Below are positions 45,123 through 60,665 of a DNA stretch of 64,000 nucleotides, in pieces. The translations under genes were made by a program, and so were the position numbers. Position 1 is the stretch's first letter. The number at the start of each line of letters is the position of its first letter. Below the pieces are notes generated by a model. It did no database searches. It worked only from the letters and a program-made list of their open reading frames with translations, and had not been told where the DNA came from. Origin of the DNA: Acidobacteriota bacterium (lineage in GTDB: Bacteria; Acidobacteriota; UBA6911; RPQK01; JAJDTT01); contig OZ253580.1 of NCBI GenBank assembly GCA_965263035.1, positions 3,200,001 to 3,264,000 on the forward strand. The letters are read 5' to 3'.

Positions 45123-45447
45123 CAGCCCGTGGCAAAAGTCGTCGCGGCATTCGACCGGGTCTGCATCGTGCGCGGACTGCGTTGCGCCTCGGTCACATAG
45201 GAGTCTGCGCGGTAGAAATGATCGTAGCGAGAAAGTGGGGAATCGAGGCCAGATTTTCTCGATTTGGAGGTGCATAGTTGTTCTATTCGCCGAGAAATCG
45301 GGGAAATATGGACCGATTCTACCGCTTTCGCAGTAGATCAATTTCTGCGGCGCAGGCTCATAGGGTCGAATATGCTCCCTCACCGCGCCTTGCCCGGCGG
45401 GCGCAGCCCCGGTCTCGGTGCTACGCGGGACTTTCACCACGGACTGC
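45122..45447 (-). mobile_element. MITE family B copy interrupted by family A copy 4
   Basis: 45122-45200 and 45364-45447 match the reverse complement of 34284-34445; TA at both ends. Confidence 0.85.
45201..45359 (-). mobile_element. MITE family A, copy 4 (159 bp, inverted, ATAG duplication)
   Basis: ATAG at 45197-45200 and 45360-45363. Confidence 0.9.
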
Positions 45448-46815
45448 TATGACGTCGTGGAGGACCTTGCCTCCCACGTCGGTGAGGCGAAAATCCCTCC
45501 CGCTGTAACGATAGGTCAATCGCGTGTGGTCCAATCCCAGGAGATGCAGGATCGTGGCATGCAGGTCGTGGGGATGGACAGGATCTTCCACGGCCTTGTA
45601 TCCGAAATCATCGGTGGCGCCGTAAGTGCAGCCACCTCGAATTCCACCTCCGGCCAGTAGCGTGCTGTAGCCGTACACGTTGTGGTCGCGGCCCTTTCCG
45701 ATCTTCTCCAGGCCGCTGTTCTGGATCATGGGAGTGCGGCCGAACTCGCTGCCGACGATGACCAGGGTCTCCTCGAACAGGCCGCGCAACTTCAGGTCAT
45801 GGACCAGGGCGGCGATGGGACCGTCCGCTACCCGGGCCAGCCTGCGGTGGTCCTGGATGTCGTCATGGCTGTCCCAAGGTTGGGAGCTTCCGTAGAAGAC
45901 CTGGACCATTCGAACTCCCTGCTCCACCAGTCGAAGGGCCATGAGGCAGCCGCGGCCGAAGTCGCTGTCGCCGTACCTTGAGCGTGTGGACTCCGTCTCC
46001 CTGGTGATGTCGAAGACATGGGGTACTTCCATCTGCATCCGGAAGGCCACTTCCATGGCGGCGATGCCGGACTCCAGTTCCGGCTGGTGACCGAGACGTC
46101 CCAGATAGGAGCGGTTGAGTTGGGTCAACAGAGCCAGTTGCCGCTCCTGCTCGCGGGGGAGCAACCTCTGGTTCCGAACGTTCTGGACCAGCTTTTCCGG
46201 CGACGTCTCGCTGTTGCGAACGTGGGTCCCCTGGTAGGCGTTGGGAAGGAAACCGGAAGACCAGAGGGGAGGGCCCACGATGGGATTACCGGGACACAAC
46301 ACCACGAACCCAGGCAGATTCTCGTTCTCGGAGCCCAGTCCGTAGGTGATCCATGAACCCATGGAGGGGTGACCGGGGAGTTGGTGTCCACAACTCATGA
46401 GGAGAAGGGAGGGCTCGTGATTGCCGATGTCCGAATGCATGGAGCGGATGACGCAGAAATCGTCGATGGAATCGCCCACTCGCGGGAAGATCTCCGAGAT
46501 CGGGATTCCGCTCTCGCCGCAGCGGCGAAATCCAAAGGGAGATCTCATCAGGGTGCCCGAGGCCCGGTCGGTCCTGACTTTGGGGCCGGGGAGCGGTTCG
46601 CCGTGGTGGCGAGCCAACGCCGGTTTGGGGTCGAAGGTATCGACCTGGGAAAGACCGCCATTGAGGAAGAGAAAGATGACGTGCTTGGCCCGGGGCGGGA
46701 AATGGGGATTCCGGAGGGACAGAGGCTGGTCGCGGGATGGTTCTGCCAGGAGACTGGACATTCCCACCGTACCGAACCCGGTCCCCATGAGAGACAGCAG
46801 CTCACGTCGGTTCAT
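45421..46815 (-). CDS. DUF1501 domain protein with a Tat-like signal
   Basis: MNRRELL, AKHVIFLFLNGGLSQVDTFDPKP, WDSH, EFGRTP, GRDH, DLHATILHLLG. Confidence 0.9.
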   Translation of the reverse strand: MNRRELLSLMGTGFGTVGMSSLLAEPSRDQPLSLRNPHFPPRAKHVIFLFLNGGLSQVDTFDPKPALARHHGEPLPGPKVRTDRASGTLMRSPFGFRRCGESGIPISEIFPRVGDSIDDFCVIRSMHSDIGNHEPSLLLMSCGHQLPGHPSMGSWITYGLGSENENLPGFVVLCPGNPIVGPPLWSSGFLPNAYQGTHVRNSETSPEKLVQNVRNQRLLPREQERQLALLTQLNRSYLGRLGHQPELESGIAAMEVAFRMQMEVPHVFDITRETESTRSRYGDSDFGRGCLMALRLVEQGVRMVQVFYGSSQPWDSHDDIQDHRRLARVADGPIAALVHDLKLRGLFEETLVIVGSEFGRTPMIQNSGLEKIGKGRDHNVYGYSTLLAGGGIRGGCTYGATDDFGYKAVEDPVHPHDLHATILHLLGLDHTRLTYRYSGRDFRLTDVGGKVLHDVIAVRGESPA

Positions 46816-46910
46816 GTTGGGCTCCTCCCAATCCAACGGTACAAGAATCTTCCCGGATCGTCAGTACCGCGCCGTTCATTTCCGACCATCCCCGGCTGGT
46901 TTCGTCCATC

Positions 46911-49625
46911 TCAGTTCACCGAACTGAACTCGCTGGACGCCAACAACATTTGAGCGTATTTGGGCCAGGGATCTTTTTCTCCCTCCAGATATTCCAGACC
47001 CATGCGGATCTCGTCCGGTTCCGGGGGACGCCCGTACAACAGGCTGTAGGCCCGCCGGATCCGGGCTCGGCCGCCTTGGGGCGACTCTCTGGCCAGGCGC
47101 CTGGCCAGGGCTTCCGCCTGCTCCATGACGAAGGGGCTGTTCAGAAAGAAGAGCCTCTGCATGGGGCCGACGGTGACGGATCGTCGATCGCTGTGGGCAT
47201 TGGGATCGGGAAAATCGAACAGGGCCAGGGTTCGGTCGGGTTGAGTCCGGCTGACGGTGGCGTACAGAGTACGGCGCCGGTGTTTTTCGTCCAGTGGGGC
47301 CGGCGGTCCGCCCGGCTTCCGATCCAGTTTCCCCGACACGGCCAGAATCGTGTCCCGCAAGGCTTCCGCATCCAGCCTCGGGACCGGGTTCATCCGCCAC
47401 AGAAGCCGGTTTTGCGGATCCTTCTCGAAGTTCTCCTGCCGGTGCCGGCTACTCATGGCATAGGTGGACGACAGCATGATCTCCCGGTGGAGCTGTTTGA
47501 CGGACCATCCGCTTCGAATGAAACGCGCCGCCAGATAGTCCAGCAGCCGGGGATGGCTCGCCGGTTCTCCCAATCTTCCCAGATTGCTTGGCGTCGGGAT
47601 GATCCCGCTTCCAAAGTGGTGCTGCCAGATTCGATTGACCATGACTCGCGCGGTCAGGGGATTCCGGGAATCGGCAATGGCTCTCGCCAACTCCAGGCGG
47701 CCACTGCCGCCGCCGAAGTTTTTGGGTGTCCCGTCGCTCACAATGTGGAGGAATCGTCTGGGAGCCACCTCTCCCAGGTTCTTCTTGTCGCCCCGGATGG
47801 CGATTCGGAGATCCTCCGGTTTCTCCTGATCCTGATAGCTGTGGAGAAAGGGATAGGGCTCGGGCCCCGACTCCTCCAGACGCTTCAGCTCGGCACGCAT
47901 CCGGTCCAGGTGACCCTTCCAAACGGGGCTGAGAAAGCGATCGATCTCCAGCCCCTCTTCCGCGCCGTAGTAGAAAACTCCACCCGGGAACCTGAAGCTC
48001 CCTCTGGGATGGGGCTCCGACGCCAAATCTCTCCACAGGTACCACTTCTCCAGGTCAAGGAACTCCAGGTTGGTGAATTGACGGGTGCCCTGGTCGGCAA
48101 CTCCTTTGGCCCCGCCCAACTTCACGTAGTTTCGATCCTCGATGGCCTTCTTCTCGGAGTCGACGGCCAACACCACGTCCTGAAAGCGGCGCGAGAGATC
48201 GTTCACCTTTTGGAGAATTCCTCCCTGGCTCCGCAGCTCTTCCCATTCGCGAAGGTACGGGTGTTCCAGATCCGTTCGCCCAAGATACTTGACCCAGCGC
48301 TCCAGAATCTCCGAGTCCAGATCTACCGACGGCGGCAGTGGGTTCTCCTTCATCACCTTCCAGGCGGCCACCATGTAGTCGGAGGTCCGTCCCATCAGGA
48401 TTTCCGCCAGTTGCTGCGACTGAGACTTGATGAAGGCCTGGATCGCTTCCTTCTGGGCGTTGATCCGCTCCTGGCTCTTCTTGTAGGCCTGGACGATGGA
48501 GTCGGCCACCAAGGGGTGTTCCGCGGCTTTGCTACTGGTGAACACACCCTTCAGGGAATAGAAGTCCTGGGTGGGGATGGGATCGTACTTGTGGTCGTGG
48601 CAGCGGGCGCACCCCACGGTCAGTCCCAGAAAGGTTCGGGCCGTCACGTCCACCAGATCGTCCAGGTTGGGAGCGACGACGAGGAAGCCCAGGCCCGCAA
48701 GCAATTCCTCCCGGACTTCGGGCGGCAGTTGATCGGCCGCCACCTGGGCCAGGACGAATTGATCGTAGGGCAGATCCCGGTTGAAAGCCTCGACCACCCA
48801 ATCCCGATAGCGGAAGGCGTTGGGATAGGGAGTGTCTGTCCGGGCTCCCAATCTGCCGTCGGAATACCGGGCGAGGTCCAGCCAGTGCCGGCCCCAACGC
48901 TCGCCGTAGTGACGGGAGCCGAGGAGTCGCTCCACGACCCGGGAGAATGCGTTCGGGGAGGTGTCGCCGACGAAGGCCTCCACCTCTTCGGGCGTGGGCG
49001 GAAGTCCGATCAGGTCGAAGCTGGCTCTCCGGATGAGCGTTCGCCTGTCGGCGGCCCCGACGGGAGCCAGACCCTCTTTTTCCAGTCTGTCCAGGACGAA
49101 ATAATCGATGGGGCTTCGAGGCCGGGAGGTGGAGGTCACCGGGGGAGGATTCGTCACCTGAAGCGGCCGGAGCGACCAGAAGGCACGCTGTTCGGGGGTA
49201 ACGGTGTAAGTGGCGGCCGGCGCCGAGGCGATCAGCTTGTCTCCGGTATCCGGCCAGACCGCTCCGGCGTCGATCCAACTGCGTAGATCCTCGACCTTCT
49301 GGTCGCTGAGTTTCCCCTGGGGCGGCATCTGCAGCTGCTCATGGGTGTGGGAGACGACCCGGATCAGAAGACTGGCGGCGGAGTTCCCCGGTCGGATGGC
49401 GGGGCCTGAACTCCCTCCGCGAACCAGTTCCTCCCGCGAATCCAGTCGAAGATCTCCCTTTCGGGCGCTGGTGTGACAGGCGTAACAGTTTTCGGCCAAC
49501 AGGGGCCGAATGCGCAGCTCGAAGTATTCGGCGGCGACCGGATCGGAGCCGCACAAAGGCAGAGCCGAAGCCAGCCAGGTTCCGATCGCCAGTAAGACCC
49601 GAATGATCATGGGTTTGAATGCCAA
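46911..49625 (-). CDS. Planctomycete cytochrome c / DUF1549 / DUF1553 (PSD1) protein
   Basis: CYACH, YGERWGRHWLDLARY, CARCHDHKYDP, NPLTARVMVNRIWQHHFG, HPRLLDYLA. Start may be ATG 49610. Confidence 0.92.
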   Translation of the reverse strand: MAFKPMIIRVLLAIGTWLASALPLCGSDPVAAEYFELRIRPLLAENCYACHTSARKGDLRLDSREELVRGGSSGPAIRPGNSAASLLIRVVSHTHEQLQMPPQGKLSDQKVEDLRSWIDAGAVWPDTGDKLIASAPAATYTVTPEQRAFWSLRPLQVTNPPPVTSTSRPRSPIDYFVLDRLEKEGLAPVGAADRRTLIRRASFDLIGLPPTPEEVEAFVGDTSPNAFSRVVERLLGSRHYGERWGRHWLDLARYSDGRLGARTDTPYPNAFRYRDWVVEAFNRDLPYDQFVLAQVAADQLPPEVREELLAGLGFLVVAPNLDDLVDVTARTFLGLTVGCARCHDHKYDPIPTQDFYSLKGVFTSSKAAEHPLVADSIVQAYKKSQERINAQKEAIQAFIKSQSQQLAEILMGRTSDYMVAAWKVMKENPLPPSVDLDSEILERWVKYLGRTDLEHPYLREWEELRSQGGILQKVNDLSRRFQDVVLAVDSEKKAIEDRNYVKLGGAKGVADQGTRQFTNLEFLDLEKWYLWRDLASEPHPRGSFRFPGGVFYYGAEEGLEIDRFLSPVWKGHLDRMRAELKRLEESGPEPYPFLHSYQDQEKPEDLRIAIRGDKKNLGEVAPRRFLHIVSDGTPKNFGGGSGRLELARAIADSRNPLTARVMVNRIWQHHFGSGIIPTPSNLGRLGEPASHPRLLDYLAARFIRSGWSVKQLHREIMLSSTYAMSSRHRQENFEKDPQNRLLWRMNPVPRLDAEALRDTILAVSGKLDRKPGGPPAPLDEKHRRRTLYATVSRTQPDRTLALFDFPDPNAHSDRRSVTVGPMQRLFFLNSPFVMEQAEALARRLARESPQGGRARIRRAYSLLYGRPPEPDEIRMGLEYLEGEKDPWPKYAQMLLASSEFSSVN

Positions 49626-55460: not shown

Positions 55461-56696
55461 ATGCGAACGAAAAGACAGAGATTCCGGTGGCTCACCACTC
55501 GGCTGCCAGCTGGGGACAAGCGCCGTCTGGTGGTTCTGACCGGAGCGCGCCAAACTGGAAAAACGACTCTGGCCCGGTATCTTTACAGCGACCTGCGGTA
55601 TTTGAACCTGGACGCGATCGAGGAACGGGAGGCGGTGCGCGCCTTACGCAGCGGCAGTTGGGGCCGCGTTGTTGGCGCAGCCGTGATCGATGAGGCGCAA
55701 AAGGAACCCGGCGTCTTCGACAAGGTGAAACTGGCATACGATGAGGGACATCTGTCGTTCTCGGTCCTGCTGGGCTCGTCCCGCATCCGGGAGTCGCTGG
55801 CCGGCCGGGCGTTCGTTTACGATCTATGGCCGCTCACTGCCTCGGAAGTGCGGTTCGCCTTCGACGTCACTCCGCCCCGTCCGCTGTTCGATCGGCTCAT
55901 CACTGGTCCGGAATCGTTCTCGGAGATCCTGGGCGAAGAACCGCCGCGGCTGCTGGGTGACGAAGCGACGTCACGCTTTGAGGCAATCGACCATCTCAGT
56001 GCCTGGGGCGGGATGCCCGAGCTCCTGTCGCTGGACGACGATGATAGGCGCGAATGGCTGCGCTCCTACCAGCAGACGTGGCTCGAGCGTGATCTCGCCG
56101 ACTTGACCCGCGTGTCCGATCTGCTGCCCTTTCGTGCCCTGCAGAGGCTGGCCATGCTCCGCACCGGCCAACTTCTCAACTATGCAAAGTTGGGTCGCGA
56201 CGCTGCCGTCAGCGCCGCCACGGCCCGCCGTTACCTGGAGTACCTGCGTCTGTCTTACCAAGTCGAGCTGCTGCAGCCGTATGCCCGCAACCTCACCAGC
56301 TCGACGGTGAAAAGCCCCAAGCTCTACTGGATGGACCTGGGTCTGCTGCGCCAGGGGACCGGTTTCTGGGGTGAGATCACTGGACCCCTGTTCGAGACAC
56401 TGGTCGTATCCGAGGCGCGCAAGTGGATCGACACCCTCGGGCGTGACGCGATGCTGTGGTTCTACCGCACGCGCTCGGGGCGAGAAGTCGATCTGCTGGT
56501 CACGACCGCCGCCGGCGTCATCGGTGTCGAGGTGAAAAACCGCACCCGGGTTGGGAGGGTCGACTGCTCCGGCCTGCGCGTGTTGCGAAAGGCGTTGGGA
56601 CACGAGTGGATCGGCGGTCTGGTCGTCCACCGCGGGGAGGATCTGGTGGAGTTGGAACCGAGCCTTTGGGCGATCCCGGTCCACAGGCTCTTCTGA
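55461..56696 (+). CDS. AAA_14 + DUF4143 ATP-binding protein
   Basis: GARQTGKTT, IDEAQ, LGSS, ESLAGR, GGMPE, KSPKLYWMDLG, FETLV, EVDLL..VEVK. Confidence 0.92.
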   Translation: MRTKRQRFRWLTTRLPAGDKRRLVVLTGARQTGKTTLARYLYSDLRYLNLDAIEEREAVRALRSGSWGRVVGAAVIDEAQKEPGVFDKVKLAYDEGHLSFSVLLGSSRIRESLAGRAFVYDLWPLTASEVRFAFDVTPPRPLFDRLITGPESFSEILGEEPPRLLGDEATSRFEAIDHLSAWGGMPELLSLDDDDRREWLRSYQQTWLERDLADLTRVSDLLPFRALQRLAMLRTGQLLNYAKLGRDAAVSAATARRYLEYLRLSYQVELLQPYARNLTSSTVKSPKLYWMDLGLLRQGTGFWGEITGPLFETLVVSEARKWIDTLGRDAMLWFYRTRSGREVDLLVTTAAGVIGVEVKNRTRVGRVDCSGLRVLRKALGHEWIGGLVVHRGEDLVELEPSLWAIPVHRLF

Positions 56697-57930: not shown

Positions 57931-58974
57931 TCAGGACGGATCGCGGTCCAATCGAAGCACCACCTTTCCGAACTGGCGTTGAGACTGCAGGTGCTCCAGG
58001 GCAGCGGAGGCATCTTCAAAGTCGAAGCTCCGATCGATACAGGGGAGGAGTTTTCTCCGGCCCAAAAGCCGTACGATCTCGGCAAACTCTTGCTGGTTAC
58101 CCATGGTGGAGCCGAGAATATCGATCTGCTTCCAGAAGATGAGGCGGATCTCGGTGGCCGGGTTGGGTCCGGTGGTGGCCCCACAGGTCACGATCCTGCC
58201 TCCCTTTCGGACCATCTTGAGGCTCTGAAGCCAAGTCGAGGCGCCCGGGCCCTCCACCACCAGATCGACGCCTCGCCGATTCGTATTCCGGAAAACCTCT
58301 CTGGCCACGTCGCATTGGGTGTAGTCGTAGCAAAAGTCGGCCCCCAGCCGGCGAGCCTGCTCGAGCTTTTCTGAAGAGGAGGAGCTGACCCAGATGCGCG
58401 CCCCCGACAGCTTGGCGATGGCCAGGGCCGCGGAGGCGACGCCTCCCCCGATCCCGTGTATGAATACGTCCTCCCCCGGCTTCAACCGGCCTCGGGTGCA
58501 GACCATTCTCCATGCGGTCAGATTCACCAGCGAGAAAGCCGCCGCCTCCTCGAAGGTCACACCATCGGGAATCCGGGCCAGATTGCGGGCGGGGGCCGCA
58601 AAAAATTCGGAATAGACCCCGGGGCCGTGCTCTCCGACCAGACCGTAGCGGGCACAGAGACTCTGTTCACCGGCCTGGCAGAACTCGCATTCCGTACACC
58701 AGATCCCGGGATTGAGCATGACCCGGTCCCCGGCCTGGAGACCCTCCACCCCGGCGCCAAGTTGGCGGACCACCCCGGCGGCATCCGAGCCCAACACGTG
58801 GGGCAACTGCTGCTTGATACCCGGAATGCCCTCCACGACGAACAGGTCCAGATGGTTCAGGGCCGCGGCACGGGTCTCCACCAGCACCTCGCCTCTGCGG
58901 ATTCGGGGTGTGGGGACATCGTCAATCCGGACCTGGTCCAGGGTTCCGTGTCGATGGATCACGACGGCTTTCAT
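57931..58974 (-). CDS. MDR family zinc-binding oxidoreductase
   Basis: AALNHLD, LGSDAAG (no catalytic-Zn GHE), structural-Zn CX2CX2CX7C, GIGGGVA, FGKVVL. Confidence 0.9.
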   Translation of the reverse strand: MKAVVIHRHGTLDQVRIDDVPTPRIRRGEVLVETRAAALNHLDLFVVEGIPGIKQQLPHVLGSDAAGVVRQLGAGVEGLQAGDRVMLNPGIWCTECEFCQAGEQSLCARYGLVGEHGPGVYSEFFAAPARNLARIPDGVTFEEAAAFSLVNLTAWRMVCTRGRLKPGEDVFIHGIGGGVASAALAIAKLSGARIWVSSSSSEKLEQARRLGADFCYDYTQCDVAREVFRNTNRRGVDLVVEGPGASTWLQSLKMVRKGGRIVTCGATTGPNPATEIRLIFWKQIDILGSTMGNQQEFAEIVRLLGRRKLLPCIDRSFDFEDASAALEHLQSQRQFGKVVLRLDRDPS

Positions 58975-58995: not shown

Positions 58996-59823
58996 TCAGG
59001 GGTGATAGTAAGGTTTACGCAGCAGACGGGCCTTGGTCTCGTCGGTCGCCGCCCTCCGCATCAATTCGGGAGACGCCTCGCATCCCGGCCAGTCCACCAT
59101 GTAGGAGGGGCCGTACTGATACAGCAGCCAGAGCTTCGACTCGGTGCGGGACCTTTTCATGCAGTGGGAAATGCCCTCGCTGAAGATCACGGCGGAGCCC
59201 GCAGACAGGGGGAGATCCTTCAAGGTCGCAACGCTCTCGGGAGGACGCCGCCCGTAGGGGTGCGGGTAATTGCTCTTGTGACTGGAAGGAATGACGGAAA
59301 AGGAACCCTCTCCGCTCCCGGTGTCGCCGAGGGCAATGAGACAGGAGACCAGCAGGCAGCGGAACTCGCCGTCGATGAAACAGCGATACCGCGTGTAGCG
59401 CCGGGGGTCGGCGAGGCCGCCCTGAGAGATATGCCCTGAGATTCCGGGTTCGCGAACGATGGCGCGGGACGAGACCAGGCGAATCTGATCTCCCCAGATG
59501 AGCTGCTGCATGGCCTGGACCAGCCGCCCGTGGACGAACGCCTGTTCCAGTATCCCGCCGCCCTCGACGACGTTGAGAAGCTCGGCCTCGGGGCCGTTGC
59601 GGCGAAGCGTCACGTGGTCCGGGGGGCTGAAGAGACTTCTCTCGACCTGCCGGGAGGCTTCGCGGACCTGTCTGGAGCTCAGGAAGTCCTCCAGGATCAG
59701 GTAGCCCGTGATGTCGAAACCGTATCGCTCTTCGTCCGTCAGATACGCGACGCCGGTCCCGGTCTGAAAGGGCCGGATGTTCTTCTCTTCCTCTCTCTGC
59801 TGATAGAGCCTCGTTTCGACCAT
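58996..59823 (-). CDS. PhyH-fold Fe/2OG oxygenase-like protein with a degenerate metal site
   Basis: YGFDITGYLILEDFLS, F.VIPSSHK, AGSAVIFSEGISH; no proximal HxD. Confidence 0.8.
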   Translation of the reverse strand: MVETRLYQQREEEKNIRPFQTGTGVAYLTDEERYGFDITGYLILEDFLSSRQVREASRQVERSLFSPPDHVTLRRNGPEAELLNVVEGGGILEQAFVHGRLVQAMQQLIWGDQIRLVSSRAIVREPGISGHISQGGLADPRRYTRYRCFIDGEFRCLLVSCLIALGDTGSGEGSFSVIPSSHKSNYPHPYGRRPPESVATLKDLPLSAGSAVIFSEGISHCMKRSRTESKLWLLYQYGPSYMVDWPGCEASPELMRRAATDETKARLLRKPYYHP

Positions 59824-59837
59824 GACTTCCCGTTCGG

Positions 59838-60665
59838 CTAACCGGATTCAGATGCGCGAAAGGGCGAAAGATTGAAACCTGGCGCCGATTCGAAGGGCTG
59901 CGGTCCCTGGACCAGTTCCAGTTGCCGTGGCGTGGCCCGCTCCTCGAAACCGGTCGCGGTCTCGATCTGATCGTCCCACGCCGCCTGGAACGAGGGTGCG
60001 TAGGAAGCGAAGATGGTGCGCCGGATCTTCCGGCTCCGATTCCTGACGGCGCCATGAGTCAGGTCCTCGGAGAAGATGACCGCGTCACCCGCCCGGCAGG
60101 GACAGGTCTGAACCAGGGGATGGTTCTCATCGGGATTCTCCAGATGAAGGGGGCTCGCAAAATTTCCCTTGTGACTTCCCGGAATCACGGCGAACGCTCC
60201 CTCGTGCACGTCCACATCCGTCAGGGCATAACCCACCTTGACGCTCACGCATTCGAAGCGGCTCCGATTGTAGGCGAATTCACTGTAGGAGAGGAGCTCC
60301 GAGTAACCGTGGTGAAAGACGGTGGCCCGGCCGGGACAACGGGACAGGAGGTGCAGAGCGTCAAGTCGGATCGGAACCGAGATCATGGCCTCCATGTAGG
60401 GCAGCACCGCGGGCCAATCGATGAGTCGCTCGAAGACTCCCCCGTATTTGAGCAGGGTGCAGGAATAGTCGCGGCACCCGGTAGAACCGGCCGGTTCGTC
60501 CGGGTAGTAGCTCCGGGTCAGCCCGATGGCGCGGATCTCGTTGTCGGACAGGGCTTCCAGCTGGTCCAGCTCCCGGTTCAACTCGTCCACGAGACTCGGG
60601 GGGAGAACTCCCGGAAAAATGAGGTGGCCATTGAGGTCAAAGAGATAGGTCTCTTCAGGGGTCAT
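59838..60665 (-). CDS. PhyH-fold Fe/2OG oxygenase with an HxG motif (candidate halogenase)
   Basis: YLFDLNGHL, FHHG, F.VIPGSHK, AGDAVIFSEDLTHG, RR. Start placed at MTPEET. Confidence 0.85.
   Translation of the reverse strand: MTPEETYLFDLNGHLIFPGVLPPSLVDELNRELDQLEALSDNEIRAIGLTRSYYPDEPAGSTGCRDYSCTLLKYGGVFERLIDWPAVLPYMEAMISVPIRLDALHLLSRCPGRATVFHHGYSELLSYSEFAYNRSRFECVSVKVGYALTDVDVHEGAFAVIPGSHKGNFASPLHLENPDENHPLVQTCPCRAGDAVIFSEDLTHGAVRNRSRKIRRTIFASYAPSFQAAWDDQIETATGFEERATPRQLELVQGPQPFESAPGFNLSPFRASESG

Follow-up and report, generated by a model that had tools for sequence, protein, structure and literature searches.

A conserved glutamate that accompanies an H-x-G motif points to a HygX-like oxygenase, encoded next to a degenerate paralog, in an Acidobacteriota bacterium

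Introduction

Does a glycine at the place of the iron-binding carboxylate mark a PhyH-fold protein as a halogenase? An HxG or HxA motif in such proteins is a widely used mining signature for new radical halogenases, and the question is raised by a gene, here called gene A, in a 64,000-nucleotide stretch of contig OZ253580.1 (positions 3,200,001 to 3,264,000; G+C 62.4%) from an Acidobacteriota bacterium, which we refer to as the window. In radical halogenases, Ala or Gly usually stands in for the carboxylate of the HxD/E motif, and a halide takes the vacant coordination site (PMC8407142, excerpt). A preliminary description of the locus had proposed that gene A encodes a free-standing halogenase dependent on Fe(II) and 2-oxoglutarate (2OG), in which G120 leaves a chloride site as in SyrB2, WelO5 and BesD; it had offered as an alternative an oxygenase with a non-canonical iron ligand, the Glu of an FSEDLTH motif. 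We found that the H-x-G motif is present and conserved, but that it is accompanied by an equally conserved Glu four residues ahead of the distal His, E200, which aligns with an iron ligand of the oxygenase HygX. We consider it likely that gene A encodes an Fe(II)/2OG oxygenase of the PhyH superfamily, of the HygX sub-type and with a rewired iron-binding triad, that probably works together with the product of the adjacent gene B.

The putative iron site of gene A resembles that of HygX

By sequence, by profile and by fold, the closest solved protein to gene A is HygX of Streptomyces hygroscopicus. A phmmer search of the Protein Data Bank (PDB) with the gene A product matched HygX (4XC9/4XCA/4XCB/4ZPI) at E 1.5e-13, and a profile of the family matched it at 8.7e-31, compared to 1.4e-16 for DhiD, 4.9e-14 for human PhyH, 7.8e-9 for SyrB2 (rank 18) and 2.6e-6 for CytC3. 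Similarly, when the model of gene A was compared with the PDB by Foldseek, HygX chains took every one of ranks 1-10 (the best at E 1.8e-19, TMq 0.68 and 26% identity). The iron site of HygX has been described as H-X-G...E-X3-H, in which the acid is relocated, Gly stands in its old place and Lys137 lies in the gap; in vitro, the enzyme makes hygromycin B from hygromycin C via orthoester formation (PMC13374393, excerpt).

Each element of this site has a counterpart in gene A. In the phmmer alignment, H102, G104, K137, E202, H206 and R217 of HygX fall on H118, G120, K143, E200, H204 and R215 of gene A, such that LHGG is aligned with FHHG, YVKAL with SVKVG and NEALMHG with SEDLTHG, and the Arg 11 residues past the distal His with R215 (HygX residues were counted along the chain, a count that reproduces the Lys137 of the literature). 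The two proteins thus have in common the PhyH-type double-stranded beta-helix, the H-X-G motif, the Glu at position -4 relative to the distal His, the Lys on a neighbouring strand and the Arg at +11. They differ in that HygX has Gly where gene A has H119, and their identity is just 25-27%.

Canonical PhyH hydroxylases (human PhyH, 2A1X; EctD, 3EMR/4MHR; PHYHD1, 2OPW) have PF05721, the distal His and the Arg in common with gene A, but they carry HxD, have no Glu at -4, and match less well (E 1e-7 to 1e-14, compared to 1e-31 for HygX). In the profile alignments of the best PDB matches, the residue at -4 is Pro in PhyH, Ser in EctD and Gly in DhiD, and Glu in none of these canonical HxD relatives; therefore the E-x3-H motif goes together with HxG. 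To our knowledge, HxG with a compensating acid four residues ahead of the distal His has so far been documented only for HygX. The arrangement in gene A, with E200 on E202 of HygX, supports by homology the alternative that the Glu of FSEDLTH acts as a non-canonical ligand (HygX site as in the excerpt of PMC13374393), and we consider E200 most likely to be the third iron ligand, an acid that would have moved to a different strand. Gene A would then probably be an ordinary oxygenase and not a chlorinating enzyme. A further candidate function that we considered, a 2'-O-methyl nucleoside demethylase of the PHYHD1 type (PMC12709175), was rejected; PHYHD1, a protein with the canonical HxD motif, is a distant relative (profile E 1.3e-7).

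The site is conserved across a large bacterial family

We collected relatives of gene A both by a word-seeded search (155 at E <= 1e-3) and by a profile search of 1.84 billion representatives, which returned 12,884 at E <= 1e-3, 3,018 at E <= 1e-10 and 468 at E <= 1e-30. Across 22 gene A orthologs of 37-96% identity (alignment A3), H118, G120, K143, E200, H204, R215 and R216 are all invariant (22/22), and in a 39-row alignment (A1) the E200 column is Glu or Asp in every row. We also aligned to the family hidden Markov model 276 domain segments cut from proteins of both searches, and the columns of H118, G120, E200 and H204 read H..G..(E/D)..H in 217 of them (Glu 206, Asp 11). R215 is similarly widespread (Arg in 252/276), and the K143 column is Lys in 114/276. 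Judged from these alignments, the H-x-G of gene A is a conserved feature and no chance substitution. The family (468 representative clusters at E <= 1e-30) is found in Acidobacteriota, Poribacteria, Spirochaetia, Latescibacterota, Chloroflexota and cyanobacteria. The motif reported earlier at H118-x-G120 was confirmed at its codons, as were the distal His and the intact Arg pair R215/R216. R215 occupies the position of the Arg that binds the C5 carboxylate of 2OG in this family, and is its putative counterpart.

We noted a second near-invariant Glu, E123, in the HHGYSELL stretch of gene A, which is common to HygX (GGNSELL).

We also noted, in the representative library, ten relatives of 490-580 amino acids in which a second family domain stands beside a strongly A-like domain. 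The second domain could be read in seven of the ten, and in these His is absent from the H118 column. In seven of the ten, the A-like domain carries H-x-(G/S/N/T) together with Gly or Ser at the E200 column (these seven are drawn from P0125, P0126, P0131, P0136, P0176, P0191, P0252 and P0268; P0128 and P0124 are excluded). Because they have no acid at either of the two known positions, the sequences of these two-domain relatives show a more genuine halogenase-like signature than that of gene A, and make them better halogenase candidates.

Expected chemistry and competing readings

If gene A follows HygX, Fe(II) would be held by H118, E200 and H204, a 2-His-1-carboxylate triad that is the same in composition but rewired, and 2OG would chelate the iron with its C5 carboxylate anchored by R215. 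K143 would project into the space freed by G120, such that G120 makes the pocket wider and K143 lines it. Activation of O2 would yield a ferryl species, and its abstraction of hydrogen from the bound substrate would be followed by rebound or cyclisation; the expected chemistry would be either hydroxylation or the oxidative cyclisation known from HygX. Since three protein ligands would leave no halide site on the iron, ferryl oxidation is to be expected and not chlorination. Gene B might supply a non-catalytic or substrate-shaping partner, as TlxI does for TlxJ (see below), or it might stabilise A, and the substrate is at a guess polar, possibly a carbohydrate-like small molecule.

The proposal of a free-standing radical halogenase, in which G120 would open a site for chloride or bromide, accounts for the H118-x-G120 motif, since SyrB2, CytC3, WelO5 and BesD all have H-x-G/A at the proximal position, and SyrB2 and CytC3 are detectable, if remote, relatives from the same Pfam superfamily. 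It would also suit the surroundings in one respect: the preliminary description was right that no carrier protein is encoded nearby, as expected for a halogenase of free substrates, and we found no PP-binding, nonribosomal peptide synthetase or polyketide synthase domain and no glycoside cluster in Pfam scans of 45 open reading frames of the window. The same scans revealed no biosynthetic cluster of any kind around gene A, and instead housekeeping genes (MutY, M3 peptidase, EtfAB, RuvABC, UvrB). What argues against an empty halide site is the conserved Glu four residues ahead of the distal His. Halogenases have no replacement carboxylate, so that the halide binds the iron (PMC8407142, excerpt), whereas gene A keeps an invariant Glu that aligns with the third ligand of HygX, and thus the third facial position of gene A is, by homology, probably not vacant. 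Moreover, HygX itself, with the same H-X-G, is an orthoester-forming oxygenase in vitro (PMC13374393, excerpt), and its E-value with the family profile is ahead of that of SyrB2 by 22 orders of magnitude. The SyrB2-type chlorinating-enzyme model TIGR01762 of NCBIfam scored gene A at 12.4 bits, compared to a cut-off of 226.3, which places it outside that clade, and neither WelO5 nor BesD appeared among the PDB matches at E <= 10 (all 31 phmmer matches and the best 60 of 65 profile matches). We therefore could not sustain the halogenase proposal, which we regard as highly improbable. Equally remote, and much less likely than the obligate heterodimer proposed below, is a bolder reading in which E200 is hemilabile and gene A halogenates nonetheless.

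The likeness to HygX could also be taken further, such that gene A would be a true HygX ortholog that forms orthoesters in a pathway of the orthosomycin or aminoglycoside type. HygX is indeed the best match by sequence and fold, with all site residues in common, the Lys included, but the identity of 25-27% is low, and gene A lies among housekeeping genes with no glycosyltransferase and no orthosomycin or aminoglycoside cluster around it (Pfam-scanned open reading frames of the window), unlike HygX. Furthermore, the family ranges far beyond orthosomycin producers, and the neighbours vary between loci; we give this reading the least credence of all. Gene A also stands beside a degenerate paralog, and we met no HygX partner of such a kind in the literature consulted, as far as its excerpts go.

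Several points count against the reading that we prefer, that of a HygX-type oxygenase with E200 as third ligand. The ligand role of E200 is taken from a homolog of 26% identity and not from the geometry of a model, and the description of the HygX site comes from one review (PMC13374393, excerpt). Sequence alignment to the canonical members is ambiguous around the proximal motif; specifically, when HMMER aligns the family profile with human PhyH, HHG falls four residues before the HQD of PhyH, and therefore the designation of G120 as the "Asp position" depends upon HygX and that review. E123 could be a metal or substrate ligand. Finally, the varying neighbours have a loose carbohydrate flavour and give no real evidence for the substrate.

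A degenerate paralog is encoded beside gene A

Gene B is 28% identical to gene A (BLASTP E 2e-21), and for gene B too HygX is the best match among solved proteins (profile E 7.5e-19; Foldseek ranks 1-10). To compare loci, we kept 80 from genome contigs, nine of which (L001-L009) have a gene A ortholog at 55% identity or more; their hosts are Acidobacteriota, Spirochaetia, Poribacteria, Candidatus Versatilivorator and one unclassified metagenome-assembled genome (MAG). In all nine, a gene B ortholog (47-90% identity) lies directly downstream of the gene A ortholog. The remaining 71 loci (L010 onward), with family members of 29-38% identity, have no gene B ortholog, although a few of them show another family-related match nearby (25-28% identity).

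The site residues of gene B are degenerate. The column of H118 is Gln in nine of ten gene B orthologs (Q134 in gene B) and Gly in the tenth, and the column of R215 is K, D, H or Q, with Arg in none of the ten. As had been remarked, the neighbour does keep the Glu of an FSEDLTH-type motif: E216 and H220, in FSEGISH, are invariant in the 10-row alignment of gene B. The alignment has a mean column identity of 64%, with conserved motifs specific to gene B (ADPRRYxRYR, YQYGPSYMVDWPGC and PYYHP). The model of gene B is weaker than that of gene A, with a predicted local distance difference test score (pLDDT) of 74.8 that falls under 50 at residues 135-155. The most conserved B-specific stretch, QGGxADPRRYxRYR, falls within these residues, which may be ordered only with a partner or ligand.

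There is a precedent for such a pair in TlxI/TlxJ, in which an auxiliary paralog without the 2OG Arg stands beside a catalytic PhyH-fold subunit (PMC12141560, excerpt; PDB 7VBQ). Gene B is likewise an adjacent paralog, one in which the proximal His and the 2OG Arg are missing, and both Tlx chains are detectable relatives of gene A with the family profile. The systems differ in that Tlx belongs to fungal secondary metabolism (talaromyolide) and has a canonical catalytic subunit, whereas the A-B pair is bacterial and its catalytic subunit would be of the HygX type; unlike TlxI, gene B also has no proximal His. We predicted the A-B complex with the A3 and A2 alignments and obtained ipSAE scores of 0.54, 0.54 and 0.60, compared to 0.00 for the best of three controls; the runs had at least 56% of contacts in common, with partner pLDDT of at least 85. 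In the calibration, 116 of 157 solved complexes passed the ipSAE mark, as did 2 of 215 mismatched pairs, and scores of at most 0.60 were given by only 18 of the 157 solved complexes together with both passing mismatches; these counts apply roughly to our prediction, for which we supplied our own alignments. The pass, graded as weak support, may reflect likeness to the solved TlxIJ or to other same-fold dimers, and we counted it neither for nor against a heterodimer.

The adjacency in 9/9 loci, the degenerate site of gene B, the two-domain relatives and the TlxI/TlxJ precedent make an A-B heterodimer plausible. A more specific proposal, which we put forward tentatively as a possibility, is an oxygenase that is an obligate A-B heterodimer: a HygX-type catalytic subunit with a rewired iron site would be joined by a conserved pseudo-oxygenase subunit, and the two-gene module, inherited across at least four bacterial phyla, would act on a common substrate outside secondary metabolism. 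The competing explanation is that gene A acts alone as a homo-oligomer, while gene B encodes a separate enzyme whose chemistry does not involve 2OG and which is co-inherited only because both serve one pathway. An independent enzyme would explain why gene B is so strongly conserved, with many invariant motifs of its own, above expectation for a mere scaffold, and E216, H220 and the near-invariant Gln at the His column could still form a metal site; the distant family members that have no gene B ortholog are consistent with it as well. It fits less well with the constant adjacency, with a spacer of only 14 nucleotides here, and with the complete loss of Arg at the 2OG column. Moreover, the two-domain relatives fuse an A-like domain to a domain without His at the H118 column (7/10 readable), and the Tlx pair shows that a paralog of this kind can be auxiliary (PMC12141560, excerpt). 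We regard an independent gene B as rather unlikely.

Significance

The metal-site variant is already known from HygX, and the idea of an auxiliary paralog from TlxIJ. New, as far as sequence comparison goes, is that a large bacterial family, uncharacterised and encoded outside orthosomycin clusters, is marked by a site of the HygX type, and that its closest sub-clade travels as a pair of a catalytic gene, as it appears, and a degenerate one. Among the listed papers that concern HygX, none describes such a family in its title or abstract opening. The HxG signature alone misleads, since a large family pairs HxG with Glu or Asp at -4 from the distal His; searches for halogenases would be rid of such false positives by a filter that rejects sequences with an acid at this position. 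The conserved A-B pair, moreover, is a bacterial system in which the question of why 2OG oxygenases recruit degenerate paralogs becomes tractable. If the obligate heterodimer with its common substrate is real, no bacterial counterpart of the fungal TlxIJ type in primary metabolism would precede it, and a large branch of the PhyH superfamily, so far unstudied, would gain a function.

Gene A and features of the locus

The PhyH domain PF05721 was matched by both genes (E 9.3e-18 for gene A, 3e-10 for gene B). The AlphaFold2 model of gene A has a mean pLDDT of 86.5 and a predicted TM-score (pTM) of 0.85, and the 10-residue blocks that hold the site residues score 87-96. The gene A product begins with MTPEETYLF, and an MTxEE start is matched in 8/8 full-length orthologs translated from the loci, with ATG in seven and GTG in L008. 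A longer frame that extends up to 60764 was rejected as the start; since the orthologs begin at MTxEE, we took 60665 as the start of gene A. An open reading frame of 346 amino acids that overlaps A and B in another frame has a G+C content at third codon positions of 0.50, compared to 0.73-0.80 in the listed neighbouring genes (A and B themselves not among them), and is probably spurious. Coordinates are collected in Table 1.

Table 1. Positions of genes, putative site residues and other features (window numbering unless a locus is named)
Feature	Position	Strand	Basis or remark
Gene A (P0001), 275 amino acids, predicted PhyH-fold Fe(II)/2OG oxygenase, HygX-like	59838-60665	minus	Open reading frame; PF05721; HygX best PDB match
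H118-H119-G120, putative proximal His ligand, then Gly at the canonical Asp/Glu place	60306-60314 (H118 CAC 60312-60314; H119 CAC 60309-60311; G120 GGT 60306-60308)	minus	Aligns with HygX H102-G103-G104
E123, second near-invariant Glu	60297-60299	minus	
K143, counterpart of HygX Lys137 (gap-filler beside Gly)	60237-60239 (AAG)	minus	Aligns with HygX K137 in YVKAL
E200, Glu of FSEDLTH, putative relocated carboxylate ligand (E of E-x3-H)	60066-60068 (GAG)	minus	Aligns with Glu of HygX NEALMHG
H204, putative distal His ligand	60054-60056 (CAT)	minus	Invariant in alignments A1 and A3
R215-R216	60018-60023 (R215 CGG 60021-60023; R216 CGC 60018-60020)	minus	R215 is at distal His +11
Gene B (P0002), 275-amino-acid paralog with degenerate metal/2OG site, candidate auxiliary subunit	58996-59823	minus	14 nucleotides downstream of A
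Open reading frame overlapping A and B	59015-60055	minus	Probably spurious
Zn-dependent alcohol dehydrogenase-family gene	57931-58974	minus	Pfam ADH_N / ADH_zinc_N; 21 nucleotides downstream of B
Two-domain relatives P0124, P0125, P0126, P0128, P0131, P0136, P0176, P0191, P0252, P0268	outside window		
Further PhyH-family genes in Spirochaetia loci	L003:12977-13954; L004:12571-13323; L004:13320-15245	minus	3-5 kb from A-B
PSCyt1/PSCyt2/PSD1 protein and DUF1501 protein, gene pair	45421-49625	minus	904 and 471 amino acids
DUF4143 ATPase gene at window edge	26-682	plus	DUF4143 part only
DUF4143 ATPase gene, full-length	55461-56696	plus	AAA_14 + DUF4143

Genomic surroundings

The best relative of the window (96% identity) is L001, a contig of an uncultured Acidobacteriota MAG that is collinear with it in the order EtfB, EtfA, YdjM, A, B, Zn-dependent alcohol dehydrogenase, esterase, AAA/DUF4143 and M3 peptidase. 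The YdjM gene is divergent from the minus-strand genes A, B and the dehydrogenase, and the last of these is possibly co-transcribed with A-B. The link is lineage-specific, as the dehydrogenase adjoins A-B only in L001 (90% identity); other genes of the alcohol dehydrogenase family were seen in L009 (26% identity, ~1.7 kb downstream) and in L004 (27%, ~5.6 kb off and on the opposite strand). Beyond A-B, the neighbours differ among the nine loci: in L002 they are a PfkB kinase and an enolase-superfamily gene, and in Poribacteria HPr kinase, GFO/IDH/MocA oxidoreductases and a 3-keto-disaccharide hydrolase. In the Spirochaetia loci, we noted more PhyH-family genes near A-B, all on the minus strand, which suggests local clusters of PhyH-type oxygenases.

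Elsewhere in the window, a gene for a protein with PSCyt1, PSCyt2 and PSD1 domains is paired with one for a DUF1501 protein, a pairing typical of Planctomycetota-like and Acidobacteriota genomes. The window also holds two genes for DUF4143 ATPases.

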